From a virus, in the IMG/VR virus record IMGVR_UViG_3300027763_000027, positions 64,001 through 128,000 of that record: a stretch of DNA of 64,000 bases; one strand, written 5' to 3'. The notes below the pieces were generated by a model that was not told the origin of the DNA, did not search any database, and saw only the letters and a program-made list of their open reading frames with translations. Each line of letters opens with the position of its first letter. The stretch's first letter is position 1. Below are positions 6,271-63,678 of this stretch, piece by piece. A program made the translations under genes and the position numbers.

Positions 6271-6337
6271 AGTAAATACTATTACACATTAAATATAAAA
6301 AATGATATTATAAATTATTAATCTTTGTATTATATCT

Positions 6338-6725
6338 TGGACCCGAGAGGAGTTGAACCTCTGTCTTTTAAAAATCTAAATTAAAATACTACAAGTTTAG
6401 TTCATTTTAATATTTAGCTTCATATAGATAAATAAACAAACATATTCAGCGTATTCTATCTTGAGTATTGCTATCTAAAGAATAGAAAAACTATTAAATA
6501 GCAAACATCTAATTACGCAATATTCCAGTAGATGTGTCGTGGATATCACGCTGTAACTTAAGCTACAGAAGCGGTCTCTTCTACAAGAGAAACTCTTGCA
6601 GAAATATGACCTTTATATTTTGCTGTTTTGGCAGTTAATATAATTGAAACTTTTTAAGGAGTCCTCGATTCAACCTCCACTTGCATTTCAATTTATTTCT
6701 TTAAAATCGAAACCAGTACGGGCCC
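6338..6725 (-). ncRNA. ssrA: tmRNA; tag reading frame 6632-6558 encodes (A)AKTAKYKGHISARVSLVEETASVA*
   Basis: 5' GGGCCCGTACTGGTTTCGA pairs with 3' GACAGAGGTTCAACTCCTCTCGGGTCCA; acceptor stem has the G3-U70 alanine determinant; T arm present; TAACT-GCC resume context; CCA not encoded; 388 nt. Confidence 0.93.
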
Positions 6726-7315: not shown

Positions 7316-8221
7316 TCACTTATCTAATATAGAATATAATTGATTCTTAATTTCTTGAGATTTTGTTTTCGCTATAATTAGACTCGATTCAATATTTTCT
7401 GTATACTTGCCTTCTAGAATTTTTTTTATTTCTAAAGATATATTTTCTGCTGTAGCATTTTCTCCGATCAATAAAGCTGGCCAATTTATTGATTCAGTTT
7501 GTCTTCTAACTTTATGTCCACCACCAATAGGATCGATTGCTAATACTGGAATTTTATTTTTCAATGAATAAACGATTCCATGTAATCTAGTGCTTATTAT
7601 TGCATCACATTTACATATAAGTGATTCTAAGATATCAGAAGAATAAACTCTTGTTCTGTTTTTATTTTTTTCTGTTGTTATAGTTGTGTCTATGTCTATT
7701 CTTGCAAATTTTTCTTTATCAAAAAAATTCCATACTTCTTTTTTAATGTTTTCATGATATCTTATACCTCCCGAGCAGCGACCATTTAGATGAACTAGTA
7801 AAACACCTATGACGGGAACTTTTTTATTTTTTATGTTAAAAACTAAATCTGGATTTTTTATAGTAGTTGAATCTCTTGCTACGATATAATCCACATAACC
7901 ATTATAAGTACTAATGTCGTCTCTAGAAATCGTAGTGTTTATAGCAATTTTTTTACAATGCGAAAAGTCATTAATAATATCTAATGGGCGAAAAGAGCTA
8001 GTACCAAATGGCCCACATACATAAAATAATATATTGTATATTTTTGGATTAATTTCATTAAATTTTATACTTTTTTTAGAACAACTCACTTCATTAACGA
8101 TATCATATTCTATATTTTTTTCAGTAAGCCAAGAAGCTACTACTTGTGCTGCTTGAACGTCTCCAAATGTACAAGCTCTATCTCTTACTCCAAAAGGCCC
8201 AAATATTAAAGCTCTATTCAT
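7316..8221 (-). CDS. Polysaccharide pyruvyl transferase family protein
   Basis: TFGD near N terminus, ARD, PDLVF, ISTRLHGIVYSL motifs. Confidence 0.75.
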   Translation of the reverse strand: MNRALIFGPFGVRDRACTFGDVQAAQVVASWLTEKNIEYDIVNEVSCSKKSIKFNEINPKIYNILFYVCGPFGTSSFRPLDIINDFSHCKKIAINTTISRDDISTYNGYVDYIVARDSTTIKNPDLVFNIKNKKVPVIGVLLVHLNGRCSGGIRYHENIKKEVWNFFDKEKFARIDIDTTITTEKNKNRTRVYSSDILESLICKCDAIISTRLHGIVYSLKNKIPVLAIDPIGGGHKVRRQTESINWPALLIGENATAENISLEIKKILEGKYTENIESSLIIAKTKSQEIKNQLYSILDK

Positions 8222-8553
8222 TATTTTTTATTTATTAAATGCTGTTGTATTATATCAAAATTACGATCTAATTTAGATTCAATTCTATCAAAATAATCAT
8301 CGAAAGACTCTTTTGTAACATATGTTGTGCTAATTTTTAAAGCTAAATCGGCTATTTCTTGTTGATGCTTTCTTCCTTCTAATTCCATTTCTTTTCTTAA
8401 AGTTATGAAATCGCTAAATGTTTTATCATTGATCTCTTTCATTAAGTTCTCTTGCTTATCGAAAAGAGAGAATACCCTAGTAAACAACCATCCTCCTAAA
8501 AAAGAAAGTGCTCCCAAGACTAAATTAAATAATAATGAAATATCTAAATTCAC
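8221..8553 (-). CDS. Single-TM coiled-coil protein (holin-like candidate)
   Basis: Hydrophobic N terminus LLFNLVLGALSFLGGWLF followed by charged helical tail; GTGTAA-N8-GTG upstream. Confidence 0.55.
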   Translation of the reverse strand: MNLDISLLFNLVLGALSFLGGWLFTRVFSLFDKQENLMKEINDKTFSDFITLRKEMELEGRKHQQEIADLALKISTTYVTKESFDDYFDRIESKLDRNFDIIQQHLINKK

Positions 8554-15436: not shown

Positions 15437-15995
15437 ATATTTTTTCTAAATTTTTTTCCATTAGTTCGTATAAGAAGTTTGTATCTTGACAAGTTTCCCA
15501 GCAAACAGAAAAATCAGCAACAGCTTTTAACTTATTATCATTTGCTTTTTCTTCAATATTAGCTGGTGGCACAAGGTTACCATTATCTAGTTTTCTAGAT
15601 ATATGTATTAGAATACCATTATTATTTTTCAACCAAGAGTATTCATCTTCCTTATATTCTATATATCGAACATCTGTAATTATAGGTATAATATTTTGTT
15701 TATTAAAATTTTTAATTTTCATATCTAATAATGAAGTCCAGTATTTGCCTTCTGTTTGAGATCTTCTGCATTTACCATAAGAAACCATTAAAGGTCTAAT
15801 AACTTCTTTTTCTTCATTTGTACATTTTGTTAAATCAATCTTAAATTTTTCAATTGTAAATGGATTTAATTCTTTTTTAAGATCATCAGCAAAAGCAAGC
15901 CTATCAGCTTTTAAGCCTTTATTTTCAAAATATTTAGCAAGAATACTATAGAATGTATCCTTACCAGATCGAGCTACACCTGTGATGCCTATCAT
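15402..15995 (-). CDS. Deoxynucleoside monophosphate kinase
   Basis: IGITGVARSGKDT P-loop; AFADDLK; ITDVRY. Confidence 0.85.
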   Translation of the reverse strand: MIGITGVARSGKDTFYSILAKYFENKGLKADRLAFADDLKKELNPFTIEKFKIDLTKCTNEEKEVIRPLMVSYGKCRRSQTEGKYWTSLLDMKIKNFNKQNIIPIITDVRYIEYKEDEYSWLKNNNGILIHISRKLDNGNLVPPANIEEKANDNKLKAVADFSVCWETCQDTNFLYELMEKNLEKIYELYTRHRSNK

Positions 15996-16071
15996 AATTA
16001 CAAGTATACATGTTTATTAAAAAAAGTAAAGTTAAAATTGACTTAATTTAAAATTAATATATAATTTATAA

Positions 16072-16488
16072 ATGAAAAGAGTATCGTTTAAAGACATGGC
16101 AATCAATTTTGCCATCAATGCTTCTTTAAGGTCAGAAGATAAGTATAAAAAAGTAGGATGTGCGATTTTAAATAAAGAAGGAAGATTATTAAGTATAGGA
16201 TATAATGGGCTACTACCAAAACAAAAAATAAAAAATAACTTTTGGAATGATAGAGATTATAGGAGAAAATACATAATACATGCAGAAACTAACGCTTTAT
16301 CATGTATAACTCGATACGATAACCCTTATCTTTTAGCTTGTACTTTATTACCATGCTCTAATTGCGCTTCTAATATTGCATCTAATGGGATTAAAGAGGT
16401 CTTATATATAGATGAGTATGTTCCTGACCAAAATGCACACGATATATTTGATTTTTATAAAATAAAATTAACTAAATTTAATAAATGA
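16072..16488 (+). CDS. dCMP deaminase
   Basis: KVGCAI, IGYNG, HAETNA, PCSNC zinc motifs. Confidence 0.9.
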   Translation: MKRVSFKDMAINFAINASLRSEDKYKKVGCAILNKEGRLLSIGYNGLLPKQKIKNNFWNDRDYRRKYIIHAETNALSCITRYDNPYLLACTLLPCSNCASNIASNGIKEVLYIDEYVPDQNAHDIFDFYKIKLTKFNK

Positions 16489-30224: not shown

Positions 30225-30422
30225 ATGAACAAAAAATGTCCAAATATGAACGAATGTCGGCCAAATATAGGGGCTGGAAAAGGGGATAAGCCAAGAAATT
30301 GTTTCTCTGATAGATTTAAACAAAACTATGATAGTATAAACTGGTCAGATGAAAAAGATAAGTCGTTGATTAAAAAAGAATTAAAAAAGCAAAACAACTC
30401 ATCTACATACATTTACAAATAA
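30225..30422 (+). CDS. Small phage protein
   Basis: GAGKGDKPR...FKQNYDSINW motif typical of small phage ORFs. Confidence 0.6.
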   Translation: MNKKCPNMNECRPNIGAGKGDKPRNCFSDRFKQNYDSINWSDEKDKSLIKKELKKQNNSSTYIYK

Positions 30423-60304: not shown

Positions 60305-60757
60305 ATGAAGCTAATTAATACCACCTCATATTGTTCTGAAAAGTTAAAAGAAATTATCAAATGGTGTATGCCAGAAGGCGTATTCCTTAAAGACATTAGA
60401 AAGATAGATTTTGGTAATACTAAATTAAATTGGCATGGCAGGGCTTGGGGAAGCATGAGAGTGCATATTGGTGTGCCACGATACGGCAAGTATATTCGTC
60501 CTTATAATACAGGAGGCAGAAGAGGCTATTTAAGTGTTGAAACATATAGCTGGGAAGAAGGTTTAATTGAATTAATTGCTCATGAATTAAGACATATATA
60601 TCAATGGAAAAAAGGTAAGTATTATCATGGTATTAAAAAGATAAGAAAATATAACATGGGTACACGAGCTAAATTATGTGAAGTAGATGCTAGTTTATAT
60701 GCTAAGAGAAAAGTAAGAGAGTATAGAAAAAGTAATTTTAAATTAAATTTGGTTTGA
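60305..60757 (+). CDS. Putative zinc metallopeptidase-like protein
   Basis: LIAHELRHIYQ (HExxH) with downstream CEVDA. Confidence 0.7.
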   Translation: MKLINTTSYCSEKLKEIIKWCMPEGVFLKDIRKIDFGNTKLNWHGRAWGSMRVHIGVPRYGKYIRPYNTGGRRGYLSVETYSWEEGLIELIAHELRHIYQWKKGKYYHGIKKIRKYNMGTRAKLCEVDASLYAKRKVREYRKSNFKLNLV

Positions 60758-60758
60758 C

Positions 60759-60891
60759 ATAAGTAGTTGATTATTATATAGTTACGTGGGCGGGCTCCCC
60801 GCGCGCGCAAGTCGTTGATAGGTAAGCATTTACACAACAACAGTAAAAAACTTTAACAGGATTGGCAAGTGTCTGATAATCAGAATCTTAT
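60759..60891. repeat. Three 27-bp imperfect palindromes; first two separated by a GC-rich spacer
   Basis: 60759 ATAAGTAGTTGATTATTATATAGTTAC; 60807 GCAAGTCGTTGATAGGTAAGCATTTAC; 60865 GCAAGTGTCTGATAATCAGAATCTTAT. Confidence 0.7.
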
Positions 60892-60941
60892 GATACGAAA
60901 AAAGTTCTTGTCATAGTTTAAAAGTGTGGTATGATTAACAT

Positions 60942-61799
60942 ATGGCTAGAACAACAAAACCCGCTCAAAGTGTATACGATTTCGATGTACACCAAGAGCC
61001 ACTCCTCACAACAGACGGCAAGAGGACAGGATACTTCGGGATGGTACGCCGTGATACCCCCGAACCCATGACGCTCGGAGTTTGCACCGAGCAGTATGGT
61101 GTGGTGAAGAATGCAGACCTCGTAACGATGGTCGAAGAGTCGCTAGCGCAGAACAGTATGCTCGCCAATCACAACTCCAAAAAGTTTGTGGTTCGTGATG
61201 GATCCCGTTTCTATGCTAGCTATGACTTCCCTGAGTTCAAAACTCAGTTGAAGCCAGTTGGCAAACGTGCGGTTGGTGATGTGCTTGGTTTGAGATTGAC
61301 TGTTAACAACAGTTATGATCGCTCCAGTCGCGTTTCCCTCTCGCTTGGCTTCCTCCGTTTGGTTTGTTTGAACGGAATGAAGTCGTTGACCAAAGAGTTC
61401 AGCATGACGAAGAGACACACTCTCGCCGTGAATCTGGATTTTATTGGTGATGCATTGGCAAACGCACTCTCCAGTGTTGATACCTCTGTAGCAATCTTCA
61501 ACAGGTTGGCGCAGAAGGCAATCACTGATGAGCAGGGTTTGACATTGCTCACTAAGCTGGAAGAGAAGGCTGTCATCTCTGCTAAGGTGCGCGAAGGCAT
61601 CGAAGCAGTTTGGCGGAATCCTTCTTACGAGGAGGATCATGATCGCAACCTGTACAACTTGTACAACGCCACTACGCAGTTTTTAACTCGTAATGTCGCT
61701 GACGAGCGGTACGAGTATAGCGAGAGGGTCAGCACCGACTTGCTCAAAGTCTTCAGCGGAAAAACCCGCGACGAAGAGCTCCTGAAGCTGGTCGCCTAA
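60942..61799 (+). CDS. DUF932-family protein
   Basis: LGVCTEQYGVVKN, NSYDRS, RLVCLNGM, KRHT, NLYNLYNATTQF; markedly higher GC than flanks. Confidence 0.8.
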   Translation: MARTTKPAQSVYDFDVHQEPLLTTDGKRTGYFGMVRRDTPEPMTLGVCTEQYGVVKNADLVTMVEESLAQNSMLANHNSKKFVVRDGSRFYASYDFPEFKTQLKPVGKRAVGDVLGLRLTVNNSYDRSSRVSLSLGFLRLVCLNGMKSLTKEFSMTKRHTLAVNLDFIGDALANALSSVDTSVAIFNRLAQKAITDEQGLTLLTKLEEKAVISAKVREGIEAVWRNPSYEEDHDRNLYNLYNATTQFLTRNVADERYEYSERVSTDLLKVFSGKTRDEELLKLVA

Positions 61800-61817
61800 A
61801 CTAAAACGAAACTTTAA

Positions 61818-61859
61818 CAGAGGCGGAGGGCAAAACCCTCCGCTTCTTTTTGCTTTTTT
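61818..61859 (+). terminator. Rho-independent terminator
   Basis: AGAGGCGGAGGG-caaaa-CCCTCCGCTTCT followed by TTTTGCTTTTTT. Confidence 0.85.
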
Positions 61860-61869
61860 ATTGACATGC

Positions 61870-61944
61870 ATAAGTCGTTATCTATCAAGTATTTACAGCG
61901 CGAGGGACCCTGCGTTTGTAACTCGTTATCTATCAGAGGCTTAC
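61870..61944. repeat. Second pair of 27-bp imperfect palindromes with GC-rich spacer
   Basis: 61870 ATAAGTCGTTATCTATCAAGTATTTAC; 61918 GTAACTCGTTATCTATCAGAGGCTTAC; same 48-bp period as 60759/60807. Confidence 0.7.
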
Positions 61945-61983
61945 AACACTTGACATTTATATTATTTATGTTATAGTTATGAG

Positions 61984-62325
61984 ATGAAAGCAAAGCATAA
62001 AGTATATTATAACTTACATAAGAAGTGTCTTTCTATTATGCTTCGTGGAAAAGTATTAGAGCATAGCACAGAATTTTTTTTGCGTGATGTTGAGTTTAGA
62101 GTGAGTCAAGCAGGGCGCTCCAGGGTTCTAAAGGAACAAAGAAAGAATGTACACGCCTTTGTATGTGGGACTCCAGATGATGGTTGGCCTATTGACCAAA
62201 ATGAAAGAAAGGTAACCTATAATCCTTATAAGTATAACAGCTTTGTTTATTCTGATACCTTTGAACCAGTATATAAAGCAAAATGGGTTGGAGTTATTAA
62301 TAGAGATATTTTTGTCTTGAATTAA
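61984..62325 (+). CDS. Conserved hypothetical phage protein
   Basis: VYYNLHKKCLS...FRVSQAGRSRVLKEQRKNVHAFV...TYNPYK. Confidence 0.75.
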   Translation: MKAKHKVYYNLHKKCLSIMLRGKVLEHSTEFFLRDVEFRVSQAGRSRVLKEQRKNVHAFVCGTPDDGWPIDQNERKVTYNPYKYNSFVYSDTFEPVYKAKWVGVINRDIFVLN

Positions 62326-62350
62326 TCTAAAAGTATAGTAAGATTATCTA

Positions 62351-62506
62351 ATGGAAATCACTAAAGCCAAGAAACTAAAGGAGGGCGGTTACGCACTATA
62401 CGCAACTGACCCTAAAACTAAAACCGAAACCCAAGTTGGATATATTGGAGAAGGTCTGACTTTGGAAGCGTGGCTTCCTAAAGGAGTAAAAATTGAAAAC
62501 TCTTGA
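62351..62506 (+). CDS. Small hypothetical protein (below ORF-track cutoff)
   Basis: MEITKAKKLKEGGYALYATDP...IENS*. Confidence 0.55.
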   Translation: MEITKAKKLKEGGYALYATDPKTKTETQVGYIGEGLTLEAWLPKGVKIENS

Positions 62507-62879
62507 AGAAACATTTACTAGCAGAGGCTTTAAGTTCACGATGGTTGGTCGTGATGGCGATGTTGCTATCTATAAAAAGCGACTCGATGAACCAGACAGC
62601 GAAGCTTTTAACTATGAAGTGATTGCTATTAAGCGTCACAATGGATATGAGATTGCAGGTGTCAAGATGCCTCCTGCTGAAATGTATCCGTCCGATAGTC
62701 AATGGGGCGATTGGGCTTATACTTGTATTGATCGTGAAGATGCAGACAAGCGATTCGTTCAACTAAAAGAAAAACTATCAGCTTATGTTGCAACATCAAC
62801 TTTAGCTAATGGTGAGAAGCGTGGTCGTGGCCGTCCTCGCAAAATTGATTTGACAAAAACAGAACTTGTGGTATCATAA
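62493..62879 (+). CDS. Hypothetical protein with C-terminal AT-hook
   Basis: EMYPSDSQWG motif; KRGRGRPRK. Confidence 0.7.
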   Translation: MKTLEETFTSRGFKFTMVGRDGDVAIYKKRLDEPDSEAFNYEVIAIKRHNGYEIAGVKMPPAEMYPSDSQWGDWAYTCIDREDADKRFVQLKEKLSAYVATSTLANGEKRGRGRPRKIDLTKTELVVS

Positions 62880-62883
62880 CAAA

Positions 62884-63120
62884 ATGACATATAAATGTGC
62901 AGTAAGCGGTGAAGCACTTTCACCAGAGAGAGTTGAGGCTCTGCAAGTCCTCGGCGTTCCAGAGAGTCAATGGACAAAGAAAGAACATAGTCAAACAAAA
63001 AAACTACGAGCTGTATATGCTGGTGACGATGGCAGTAATGACATTGTTATTTGTGATGCAGTAGATGGTGGCTCGATGTTTGATAACGCAGTAGCGTTGG
63101 AGGTAGAAAATGAATCTTAA
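62884..63120 (+). CDS. DksA/TraR-like small protein (degenerate zinc finger)
   Basis: CAVSGEALSPERVEAL resembles CxxCGExIxxxRLEA. Confidence 0.45.
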   Translation: MTYKCAVSGEALSPERVEALQVLGVPESQWTKKEHSQTKKLRAVYAGDDGSNDIVICDAVDGGSMFDNAVALEVENES

Positions 63121-63268
63121 GTATATCGTTTTGCGAGACGGAATTCGTGTGAGTGAAGATATGCACACGAAGATTGAAGATGCTGAACACGAAGCGGAGT
63201 TTTGGCGTAAAGTCATTCGCTCGTGGCCTGATGGAACGAAAGTTACCATCAAGAAAATCGGCGGATAA
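63110..63268 (+). CDS. Small hypothetical protein (below ORF-track cutoff)
   Basis: MNLKYIVLRDGIRVS...FWRKVIRSWPDGTKV. Confidence 0.6.
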   Translation: MNLKYIVLRDGIRVSEDMHTKIEDAEHEAEFWRKVIRSWPDGTKVTIKKIGG

Positions 63269-63307
63269 CTTCGGAGGCTGACATTGAGCTACGGCTTAGT
63301 GTTGATT

Positions 63308-63398
63308 GCTAGGGTCGTCTAACTGGTTAAGACCCCACACTTATAATGTGGTCGCTCTAGATTTGGGCAAAATGTAGGTTCGAATCCTACCCCTAGTA
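63308..63398 (+). tRNA. tRNA with UAU anticodon (nominally Ile) and long variable arm
   Basis: Acceptor GCTAGGG/CCCTAGT plus A73; D stem GTCT/AGAC; anticodon stem CCACA/TGTGG with loop CT-TAT-AA; 22-nt variable region; T arm GTAGG-TTCGAAT-CCTAC. Confidence 0.85.
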
Positions 63399-63474
63399 TG
63401 TATTATATGTAAGTACTTAATGTTCAACCAATTATTTTTATTGACTATTTTTCTGATTCTTGTATATTAAACCT

Positions 63475-63678
63475 ATGACAAACAAAACAGCACCATTCTA
63501 TGTGATGAATGTGTTCGGTCAAGACCGAGCCGTTATCCTAAACACCTCAATCCGTATGTGTACGCCTAAAGAGACTTGTTCTCTTAAAGAATTGGAGAAC
63601 ATCTCCAAGGCTTTTGGAGTAGAGTTCTTTCAAGTACCAAAACCTTCTAGCTTCCCAGCGAAAGTAGTAGCTTCGTGA
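63475..63678 (+). CDS. Hypothetical protein
   Basis: TTGACT-N16-TATATT-N6-ATG. Confidence 0.6.
   Translation: MTNKTAPFYVMNVFGQDRAVILNTSIRMCTPKETCSLKELENISKAFGVEFFQVPKPSSFPAKVVAS

Follow-up and report, generated by a model that had tools for sequence, protein, structure and literature searches.

A 75-bp composite DNA element repeated between early-gene cassettes in an uncultured freshwater phage and its relatives

The stretch of DNA analysed here, referred to as the window, comprises 64,000 nucleotides of a phage genome (positions 64,001 to 128,000 of IMG/VR record IMGVR_UViG_3300027763_000027). Close to its end, a DUF932-family gene with its own promoter and terminator is flanked by paired palindromic boxes. 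The features of this region are displayed below, in window coordinates.

60754..60782, + strand: sigma-70-type promoter-like sequence TTGACA-N17-TATAGT (promoter scan 11/12; L001 4754-4782)
60759..60833, + strand: element E1 (59.7 bits, E 1.2e-17 against model R1), with box 1 at 60759-60785, GC-rich spacer at 60786-60806 and box 2 at 60807-60833
60848..60859, + strand: 12-bp direct repeat AAACTTTAACAG, copy 1 (direct reading)
60865..60891, + strand: single promoter-proximal box a3 (7.0 bits, single-box profile from relatives)
60908..60935, + strand: DUF932 promoter TTGTCA-16-TATGAT with TG extension (promoter scan; L001 4908-4935)
60942..61799, + strand: DUF932-family gene, 285 aa, 50% GC (Pfam PF06067, E 3.1e-14)
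61809..61820, + strand: 12-bp direct repeat AAACTTTAACAG, copy 2 (direct reading)
61819..61847, + strand: intrinsic terminator of the DUF932 gene, a 12-pair stem and then a T run (L001 5819-5847)
61870..61944, + strand: element E2 (59.3 bits, E 1.7e-17), with box 1 at 61870-61896, spacer at 61897-61917 and box 2 at 61918-61944
61950..61977, + strand: promoter TTGACA-16-TATAGT (promoter scan; L001 5950-5977)
61984..62325, + strand: Mycobacteriophage L5 gp82-like gene, which opens the next cassette (Pfam PF25735, E 3.9e-33)
63409..63435, + strand: degenerate single box c (8.7 bits; full element before the orthologous gene in relative L111)
63441..63468, + strand: promoter TTGACT-16-TATATT (promoter scan; L001 7441-7468)

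The six degenerate palindromes that an earlier note had reported are all present, at 60759, 60807, 60865, 61870, 61918 and 63409. They constitute two composite elements, E1 and E2, and two single boxes. Each composite element is 75 bp long: two 27-bp boxes, their centres 48 bp apart, enclose a 21-bp GC-rich spacer, the core. The two pairs with exact 48-bp period and 21-nt spacers were recovered at E about 1e-17 by a sequence-only model of the composite (R1). E1 and E2 belong to a set of ten copies in the phage genome; the element lies between early-gene cassettes in this uncultured freshwater phage and its relatives, and it appears to be undescribed. The information is held by the core-facing arms, which read WATCAAnnACTTAC, then 21 nt, then GTAAGTnnTTGATW. 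Each of the six boxes departs from the idealised 27-mer at 7-9 positions, and therefore a search with that 27-mer allowing up to 3 mismatches returned zero matches; the complementary arm positions in single copies number just 6-9 of 13. All six boxes are detected by a single-box profile built solely from relatives. The single boxes are weak in isolation (E 3.1 at 60865 and 0.87 at 63409), and the second is backed by L111, which carries a full element at the corresponding place. Judged from this comparison, box c is a relic of a box 2.

The TTGACA-N17-TATAGT sequence overlaps box 1 of the first pair, as had been claimed, and 5 of the 13 relatives retain the exact pattern. In the DUF932 promoter, the -35 begins 16 nt past box a3, near the usual offset after box 2, and the ATG is located exactly 6 nt past the -10, which is leaderless spacing. 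Similarly, the -35 begins 6 nt past E2 box 2 in the promoter at 61950 and 6 nt past box c in the promoter at 63441; both ATGs lie 6 nt past the -10, the latter at 63475. The DUF932 gene is indeed GC-richer than the genome (50% versus 31%) and is followed by the terminator described earlier; in 13 relatives its GC content is 44-53% and its position is retained. Two other details of the earlier note stood only in part. A TTGACA is found before the second pair (61862-61867), but no TTGACA exists there in L111. The 12-bp repeat does bound the cassette, at 60848 and 61809, but it is present on both sides in the closest relatives only and is therefore probably no functional boundary.

In the 171,916-bp phage genome (G000), ten composite elements are found, all at genome positions 124,759-135,303 (10.5 kb), and most of them fall past the window end. 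The relative G002 has ten elements inside 11 kb of 132 kb. The family comprises 179-200 unique copies across about 55 related viral contigs, and 260 of 287 full-length instances are ungapped 75-mers. A strict core pattern was found at 36 sites in viral contigs, and a search of 596 Gb of cellular genomes gave a single match, which is unrelated; by this measure the element is specific to this phage lineage. The first 60 kb of the window, where no copies had been seen before, contain no composite copy, and the single-box matches at 30359, 39410 and 51772 are at chance level. The profile scan of genome and relatives upholds the idea of modular repeated sites confined to an early-gene island, in an array much larger than first described and with the 48-bp pairing conserved. 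Orthologous element positions are retained among relatives whose DUF932 proteins are 70-94% identical, and the architecture is retained across clades whose core proteins are merely 30-45% identical. A conserved gene block adjoining the elements is common to all element-bearing clades and includes a zinc-ribbon protein, a sigma-like protein, and a 364-aa protein without assigned function. Element-flanked single-gene cassettes include anti-restriction-type genes, e.g. ArdC. The early region with the elements also carries L5 gp82-like and GP88-like genes. The lineage has no cultured relative and is not T4-like; the cultured phages closest to it by terminase infect Bacillus and related genera, and the identity is about 24%.

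We regard as very unlikely the possibility that a selfish, miniature mobile repeat (a MITE or REP doublet) without function for the phage has spread in the island. Such an origin would suit its palindromic, intergenic character and the different number of elements in relatives (L005 versus G000). However, the copies are clustered in one 11-kb island and not dispersed, orientation and promoter distance are fixed, and the retention of both orthologous positions and architecture argues against it; additionally, no Y1 or other transposase was found. BIMEs occupy 3'-end positions or lie between convergent genes, and bind gyrase. Enterobacterial REP/BIME repeats include the IHF-binding BIME-1 (RIP) type (PMC3333891, PMC2817692) and bind architectural proteins including IHF (PMC2817692, PMC3479197). 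Like the phage element, BIMEs are intergenic mosaic repeats with palindromic units, linkers and regular spacing. However, BIME palindromes are GC-rich and hairpin-forming with the IHF site in the linker, an arrangement that is inverted in the phage element, and BIMEs are dispersed over the chromosome in dependence on a RAYT transposase. The REP/BIME assignment was rejected since the copies are confined to one island and PF01797 is absent.

The boxes are palindromic, and their pairing was compared with shuffled expectation at 45 column pairs. The Watson-Crick fraction equals that expectation at essentially all of them; two reach nominal P < 0.05 before correction, and the variable columns 7:21 and 8:20 are paired in just about 25% of copies. 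No covariation or compensatory change was found at any of the predicted palindrome pairs, and a structured RNA or folded single-strand recombination site is therefore rejected. It is extremely improbable that the element acts as RNA, be it a three-hairpin terminator or processing signal or a small RNA gene. Folding does slightly favor the sense over the antisense strand (in 6 of 8 G000 copies and in 91 of 139 across the family), and transcription from the promoter inside E1 box 1 would run through the spacer and box 2. Against this, G-U-type mismatches are not clearly commoner than A-C-type mismatches, the spacer hairpins barely exceed shuffled sequence in stability (mean z -0.48) and have no T run after them, and orientation relative to local transcription is inconstant, as E5 opposes the local direction. 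Three candidates were rejected by these comparisons: a structured RNA family, given that no Rfam match covers the elements and no covariation exists; a terminator-like stem-loop directly before the promoter, given the same lack of covariation and the weak spacer hairpins without T run; and an integron attC or other folded single-strand site, given that pairing is not conserved over varying sequence. Conservation is column-wise and the geometry is fixed, so that the element looks like double-stranded DNA read by a protein.

Some rearrangements of cassettes can be seen elsewhere in the array, with joints inside elements, in comparisons of G000 with L005 and L111. L111 has box 1 and the spacer of E2 but continues with another box 2, another promoter and another gene; in L005, an extra copy is situated beside a cell-wall hydrolase gene, and one copy exists where G000 has two. 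The cassette shuffling that the earlier note had considered is supported to this extent. However, element junctions were broken in 60 of 131 comparisons and other intergenic gaps over 100 bp in 32 of 76; five of the eleven element junctions are frequently broken. Element junctions thus break no more often than other long gaps, and no special recombination activity is shown. The relocations and block swaps, together with the element-flanked single-gene cassettes such as that of ArdC, would be expected of recombination sites of a dedicated site-specific system shuffling early cassettes, like integron attC or lox sites. We consider this very improbable. The complete genome G000 has no tyrosine recombinase (PF00589), serine recombinase or Y1 transposase (PF01797), and the 86%-complete G002 has no tyrosine recombinase. 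The order metalloprotease-like gene (MP)-DUF932-gp82 is retained in every informative relative but one. Together with the missing covariation and the poorly conserved 12-bp repeat, these results speak against the recombinase-like sites proposed at first.

A promoter follows box 2 in 78 of 174 copies (about 45%). In these copies, box 2 passes into an A/T-rich stretch and then a sigma-70-type promoter. Other copies lie between convergent genes or have promoters both before and after them. Measured from the box, the offset of the -35 is 15 in 53 copies and 5 in another 16, and the two offsets are one helical turn apart. Leaderless spacing is found in 55 copies, with the ATG 6 nt past the -10 and no Shine-Dalgarno sequence. 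Most boxes lie upstream of the -35 and do not overlie the promoter, a position more in keeping with activation or an architectural role than with repression. Among the three mechanisms put forward in the earlier note (recombinase-like sites, cooperative operators, marks on first-injected DNA), cooperative protein-binding sites are best supported, by column-wise conservation, fixed geometry and fixed promoter distance.

IHF, the integration host factor, activates from upstream at Mu Pe and lambda pL, and an IHF-sized footprint is about 35 bp. The inner arms match the IHF consensus WATCAANNNNTTR (PMC8942017): in 84% of copies, no more than one of its nine specified positions deviates. Among 179 unique copies, this holds for 151 box-1 right arms and 151 box-2 left arms. 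Information content is highest at ATCAA and TTA. The island contains 12 consensus matches versus about 2 expected; the same consensus found three sites in lambda attP, and one of these, AATCAACTACTTA, recurs without any difference in E1, as the left arm of box 1. The element thus looks like a double candidate site for an IHF-type DNA-bending protein. As at known IHF-activated promoters, the candidate sites lie upstream of promoters at distances keeping the helical face. Unlike single IHF sites, there are two inverted copies, often four, at fixed 48-bp spacing, with a GC-rich core, ten repeats per genome, and extra conserved positions. The consensus positions N1, N2 and N4 hold 0.2-0.6 bits and N3, an A shared with the lambda site, holds 1.5 bits. 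This A lies between ATCAA and TTA, and its mirror-arm column 54 holds 1.9 bits. The bases flanking TTA are also conserved, as are the C/G at the spacer-facing arm ends (0.8 and 1.5 bits), which lie outside the IHF consensus.

Conservation beyond that consensus is also what operators for a dedicated phage-encoded regulator would show. Each 27-bp palindrome would bind a dimer, pairs would cooperate across 48 bp, and the whole early island would be switched together, as by cluster A stoperators or plasmid leading-region global repressors. The spacer in the main clade bears an oriented CCTCCCTGCG motif that IHF does not explain. An unrelated contig carries the half-site GTAAGTCGTTGATA in four tandem repeats with a period of 21-22 bp, too tight for four IHF footprints, which suggests a smaller sequence-specific binder. 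The restriction of the element to one phage lineage and its absence from cellular genomes, the gene block shared by all element-bearing clades, and the promoters on either side at fixed distances are likewise in favor of such a regulator. On the other hand, the arms match a known host-factor consensus and one authentic lambda site exactly, and most boxes are placed unlike repressor sites. A Pfam search of 30 island and neighbouring proteins found no DNA-binding domain besides the sigma-like protein, and a PHROGs search of ten of them added none. A dedicated regulator is therefore considered a serious though rather unlikely explanation. Stoperators of cluster A mycobacteriophages, e.g. L5, are unpaired, asymmetric sites of 13 bp, to which the repressor encoded by the temperate phage binds. 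The likeness lies in many oriented, putatively protein-bound sites in short intergenic spaces of an early region, which here also has gp82-like and GP88-like genes. The phage element differs in being a 75-bp double palindrome, and no repressor or integrase was found in this phage.

Tentatively, and at somewhat below an even chance, we favor a protein-bound module combining promoter and boundary functions, with IHF/HU-type bending at each box. The bending protein would be supplied by the host, because the phage encodes none: no HU/IHF gene was found in G000 or in the 86%-complete G002. Two points count against this reading: no IHF is known to us from Bacillus and related genera, whose phages are nearest by terminase, and E5 is oriented against local transcription. 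The bound boxes would fold the DNA into a fixed shape at the borders of early-gene cassettes, serving as upstream promoter scaffold and as boundary between transcription units. Crossovers within elements, the only long repeats of the island, would for that reason occasionally move cassettes, a by-product arising without a dedicated recombinase. If this is true, a single standard module of 75 bp underlies the arrangement of early and accessory genes throughout a lineage of uncultured lake phages, uniting leaderless starts and a promoter at fixed helical phase with a docking site for a host factor. Both early genes and the borders of cassettes would then be predictable in metagenomic phage contigs, and one could test how a phage enlists an architectural protein of its host so that DNA just injected is expressed or insulated. 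A stronger version, in which lytic phages possess a plug-and-play platform for cassettes and the elements are its docking modules, is regarded as quite unlikely. Here two IHF-type bends would surround a GC-rich core to which a putative phage factor is bound, and the nucleoprotein complex would drive and insulate leaderless early promoters and channel cassette exchange. Early and anti-defence cassettes would be actively exchanged between co-infecting phages, in a functional counterpart of an integron that lacks an integrase.

The favored module of promoter and boundary is comparable to the promoter-early stem-loops (PeSLs) of T4-type phages (Arbiol et al. 2010, PMC2839356; Comeau et al. 2014, PMC4122927), for which occasional cassette movement by crossover has also been proposed. 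In a PeSL, the part upstream is no more than a stem-loop that resembles a terminator and varies in sequence, whereas the element here is strictly spaced (27-21-27) and sequence-conserved, without pairing constraint or T run. Moreover, its promoters are leaderless-spaced without Shine-Dalgarno, and the phage is not T4-like, its terminase being about 24% identical to those of Bacillus siphophages. The module would accordingly represent a second, mechanistically different example of the PeSL idea, in which genes are exchanged by crossover at repeats that also serve in regulation. Both the GC-rich core and the strict spacing of 48 bp are unusual and worth biochemical study. In other respects the two systems are alike. 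Both are short composite repeats in intergenic spaces of a variable early region, both have a conserved upstream part fused to a sigma-70-type early promoter and gene start (here in the copies with a promoter after box 2, and without Shine-Dalgarno), and both are found beside places where relatives differ by insertion, deletion or exchange of genes. Half copies in a degraded state, represented here by boxes a3 and c, are also common to both.

All six boxes claimed by the earlier note are present at 60754-63435. Two of them, a3 (60865) and c (63409), stand alone, and the other four form two composite units of the same geometry:

60759-60833, element E1: 27-bp box, 21-bp GC-rich spacer and 27-bp box
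61870-61944, element E2: layout identical to that of E1

The idealised 27-bp palindrome proposed for these boxes lies near the consensus of the family, but every box in the window departs from it at 7-9 of the 27 positions. Arm complementarity within any one window copy extends to 6-9 of 13 positions. A search with the idealised 27-mer allowing up to 3 mismatches gave zero matches, and profile models were used instead. The source is a single viral record of 171,916 bp and 31% GC, 100% complete by CheckV, and the window covers its bases 64001-128000. Over this whole genome, a model of the 75-bp unit based on sequence alone and an nhmmer profile detected ten composite elements, all located at 124,759-135,303, which supports the suggested restriction of the sites to the early region. 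E1 and E2 are the first two of the array, and the remaining eight lie just beyond the window end. A few further, weaker single boxes occur in the same stretch, and one box is found outside the composites:

136,367-136,393 of the genome: single box

In the other 160 kb of the genome, neither the model nor the profile gave any element signal above chance.

The family was collected with the seed pattern TTAC-N21-GTAAGTCGTTGA, searched against IMG/VR contigs. It matched 94 contig stretches, about two thirds of which hold true elements, commonly several per contig. Profile searches of the pattern-matched loci yielded 179-200 unique copies in about 55 contigs. Of the 287 full-length instances, 260 are 75-mers without gaps and keep the 48-bp pairing first described in the window; the other instances have indels of 1-6 nt, chiefly in divergent clades. 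Many relatives have near-perfect palindromic boxes. Ten elements lie inside 11 kb of a 132-kb relative (86% complete), and thirteen were found on a 31-kb fragment of a clade with 42% GC. The strict core TCAAnGAnTTAC-N21-GTAAnTCnTTGA occurs at 36 sites in the viral collection; the bacterial and archaeal genomes searched, 596 Gb in all, have one site only, which is AT-rich and unrelated. The element is thus absent from cellular genomes, which offer no pointer to the host. Additionally, no close DNA match to the phage exists among phage records. Among cultured relatives, none matches its large terminase at more than about 26% identity (24% for Bacillus phages). That gene belongs to a conserved block downstream of the island, the early-gene stretch that holds all ten elements:

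140,662-146,515 of the genome (662-6515 of stretch L002): PhoH, zinc-ribbon protein, sigma-70 region 2 protein, 364-aa unknown, ERCC4 nuclease and large terminase

This block, from PhoH to terminase, is common to divergent element-bearing clades at 30-45% identity. From its sigma-70 region 2 protein it follows that the phage carries a sigma-like factor of its own.

Palindromic boxes may act as folded RNA or as double-stranded DNA. Covariation was examined in 139 unique copies of clear orientation, where every palindromic column pair was compared with shuffled partners; the 45 pairs covered both box hairpins, the right arm of box 1 against the left arm of box 2, and the spacer. At essentially all of these 45 pairs the Watson-Crick fraction was that expected from shuffling (two reached nominal P < 0.05, uncorrected), and the two variable positions of each arm are paired in only about 25% of copies. 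No clear excess of G-U-type over A-C-type mismatches was seen once the promoter-linked column 49:75 was set aside. Spacer folding is barely above that of shuffled sequence, with a mean z of -0.48, and the spacers are not followed by a T run. Rfam returned zero matches at gathering or E-value thresholds, and RNAalifold gave only a weak hairpin of 9 pairs in box 1. Single-sequence folds carry a suggestion of sense-strand bias; one element, E5, opposes the local direction of transcription. A structured RNA was dropped after the flat covariation across the 139 oriented copies. Without covariation, the palindromy stems from sequence conservation of each arm. Such arm-wise conservation is the signature of a double-stranded protein-binding site. 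It speaks against an RNA, and equally against a cruciform or a folded strand of attC type. These results show a sequence-conserved, double-stranded element of fixed geometry, which is specific to a phage lineage and clustered in the early island.

Most elements of the genome lie between tandem genes and are oriented with them; the exceptions are two that separate convergent genes, one that separates divergent genes, and an inverted one. The TTGACA-N17-TATAGT promoter reported over box 1 of E1 is present. Of 174 copies examined across the family, 78 are followed by a sigma-70-type promoter no more than 70 nt past box 2. The start of its -35 favours two offsets that differ by one helical turn: 15, seen in 53 copies, and 5, seen in 16. 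Promoters directed outward from box 1 were found in only 37 copies, also with preferred distances (for example, offset 5 in 18). Where a copy is linked to a promoter, the outer arm of its box 2 degrades to an A/T-rich stretch, and in 55 copies an ATG follows 5-7 nt past the -10 hexamer. The order of the module is therefore box, GC core, box, A/T stretch, -35, extended -10, six bases and ATG. Among the 217 ORFs of the whole genome, 39 have a TAnnnT hexamer exactly 6 nt upstream of their ATG, compared to about 10 at other offsets, and a Shine-Dalgarno-like motif precedes only 38. Examples of leaderless-type starts in the window are:

60930-60944: leaderless-type start
61972-61986: leaderless-type start
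63463-63477: leaderless-type start

The spacing from -10 to ATG implies leaderless early mRNAs, and it can be seen that the element is often fused, in helical register, to promoters of this type.

The information content of the boxes is high at TAAGT and TTGA in the left arms and at TCAA, A and TTA in the right arms, and near zero at two positions between the conserved arm blocks. A phage sigma-factor promoter was rejected by inspection, since the roughly 34 nt between the conserved blocks exceed the distance of a -35/-10 pair; DnaA, Fur and CtrA boxes and the H-NS motif were rejected by eye, as the positions they need are the variable ones here. The two arms facing the spacer are the best conserved and read WATCAAnnAcTTA outward from the box centre. 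The consensus of IHF is WATCAANNNNTTR (PMC8942017). These inner arms fit WATCAANNNNTTR: at most one mismatch at the nine specified IHF positions is found in 84% of inner arms, compared to 58% and 27% of outer arms. In the island the consensus is matched at 12 places, where about 2 would be expected. The lambda record used has no IHF-site annotation, and lambda was scanned with the consensus instead; attP gave three sites, against 0.04 expected by chance; these are the IHF sites already known there. The left arm of box 1 of E1 has exactly the sequence of one of the three, AATCAACTACTTA. No HU/IHF gene was found in the phage genome, nor in the 86%-complete relative.

A DNA-bending protein of IHF type, supplied by the host, may therefore be the ligand of the boxes, and with two bends flanking a stiff GC core the element could serve early transcription units as a scaffold or boundary. 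The leading alternative, a dedicated phage regulator, would account for a conservation exceeding the IHF consensus and for the orientation of the spacer motif CCTCCCTGCG. Moreover, the 14-mer of the best-conserved element arm, GTAAGTCGTTGATA, recurs as four tandem copies with a period of 21-22 bp within non-coding DNA on an unrelated viral contig (46-48% GC), as half-sites suited to such a protein:

L075 479-560: tandem GTAAGTCGTTGATA half-sites
L057 2020-2084: tandem GTAAGTCGTTGATA half-sites

However, among 30 island and neighbouring proteins searched with Pfam, ten of them also with PHROGs, no DNA-binding candidate appeared besides the sigma-like protein.

The proposal that the sites shuffle gene cassettes was examined in the island. 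Its genes are small and encode DUF932, L5 gp82-like, ArdC-type anti-restriction and GP88-like proteins, a cell-wall hydrolase and tRNAs; about 20 further ORFs have no family. Two island genes without known function, at 7887-8273 and 15682-16137 of stretch L001, are paralogues with 30-39% identity on opposite strands. Two clear rearrangements have their joints in elements. Elements at 130,319 and 130,582 flank a 44-aa minus-strand ORF, and at that place the related contig L005 has a single hybrid element, with the 44-aa ORF directly after the orthologue of a different element. In L111, another relative, two gene blocks are in swapped order; its element after DUF932 keeps box 1 and the spacer of E2 with a different box 2, promoter and gene, and box c, weak in the window, is what is left of that L111 box 2. 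The element is thus sometimes a crossover site. Gene-content breakpoints are not concentrated there, since across relatives gene adjacency was broken in 60 of 131 cases at element junctions and in 32 of 76 at other intergenic gaps over 100 bp, which shows no extra fragility. Change-point mapping of recombinant pairs was not used and is uninformative, because the selection of pairs itself forces the break into or beside an element. An FkbM-type methyltransferase gene, present in this genome only, lies between a tRNA-Arg and the next gene, with borders lacking an element:

128,450-129,088 of the genome (8450-9088 of stretch L001): FkbM-type methyltransferase gene, just past the window end

The DUF932 gene (60942-61799) does not behave as a shuffled unit. 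Its terminator is present and its high GC content was confirmed (44-53% in all 14 genomes, in phages of 31-40%), but its place is kept: in the compared genomes its neighbours are the metalloprotease-like gene before it and the gp82-like gene after it, an order found in all informative relatives except L072. The 12-bp direct repeat taken for the cassette boundary exists in the window but is not conserved among relatives. Composition and place together point to an old acquisition or to GC maintained by selection, rather than to recent insertion. No tyrosine recombinase, serine recombinase or Y1 transposase was found in the genome, and the 86%-complete relative also lacks a tyrosine recombinase. 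Exchange at the elements would be ordinary homologous recombination between repeats, as has been argued for PeSLs, the promoter-early stem-loops of T4-type phages (PMC4122927).

PeSLs, the palindromic bacterial repeats BIME-1 (PMC3333891, PMC2817692) and the stoperators of cluster A mycobacteriophages are close in concept to the element but differ in architecture, and some defining features of these families were tested for and are absent from it. In the full-text literature the box sequence retrieved primers only, plus a loosely similar motif in the T4-like Stenotrophomonas phage DLP6, in whose list of terminators the GC-rich hairpins are immediately preceded by TCAACGACTTAG or GACTTAGCGAA (PMC5349666). 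The DLP6 motif with its hairpin resembles a box arm with the GC-rich spacer.

Two other RNA genes were observed in the window. The tRNA-Ile (anticodon UAU) at 63307-63399 is unusually long, at 93 nt, and may carry an insertion or intron. A phage-encoded tmRNA gene is located at 6335-6725 (Rfam, 114 bits), and its atypical tag ends in VA.
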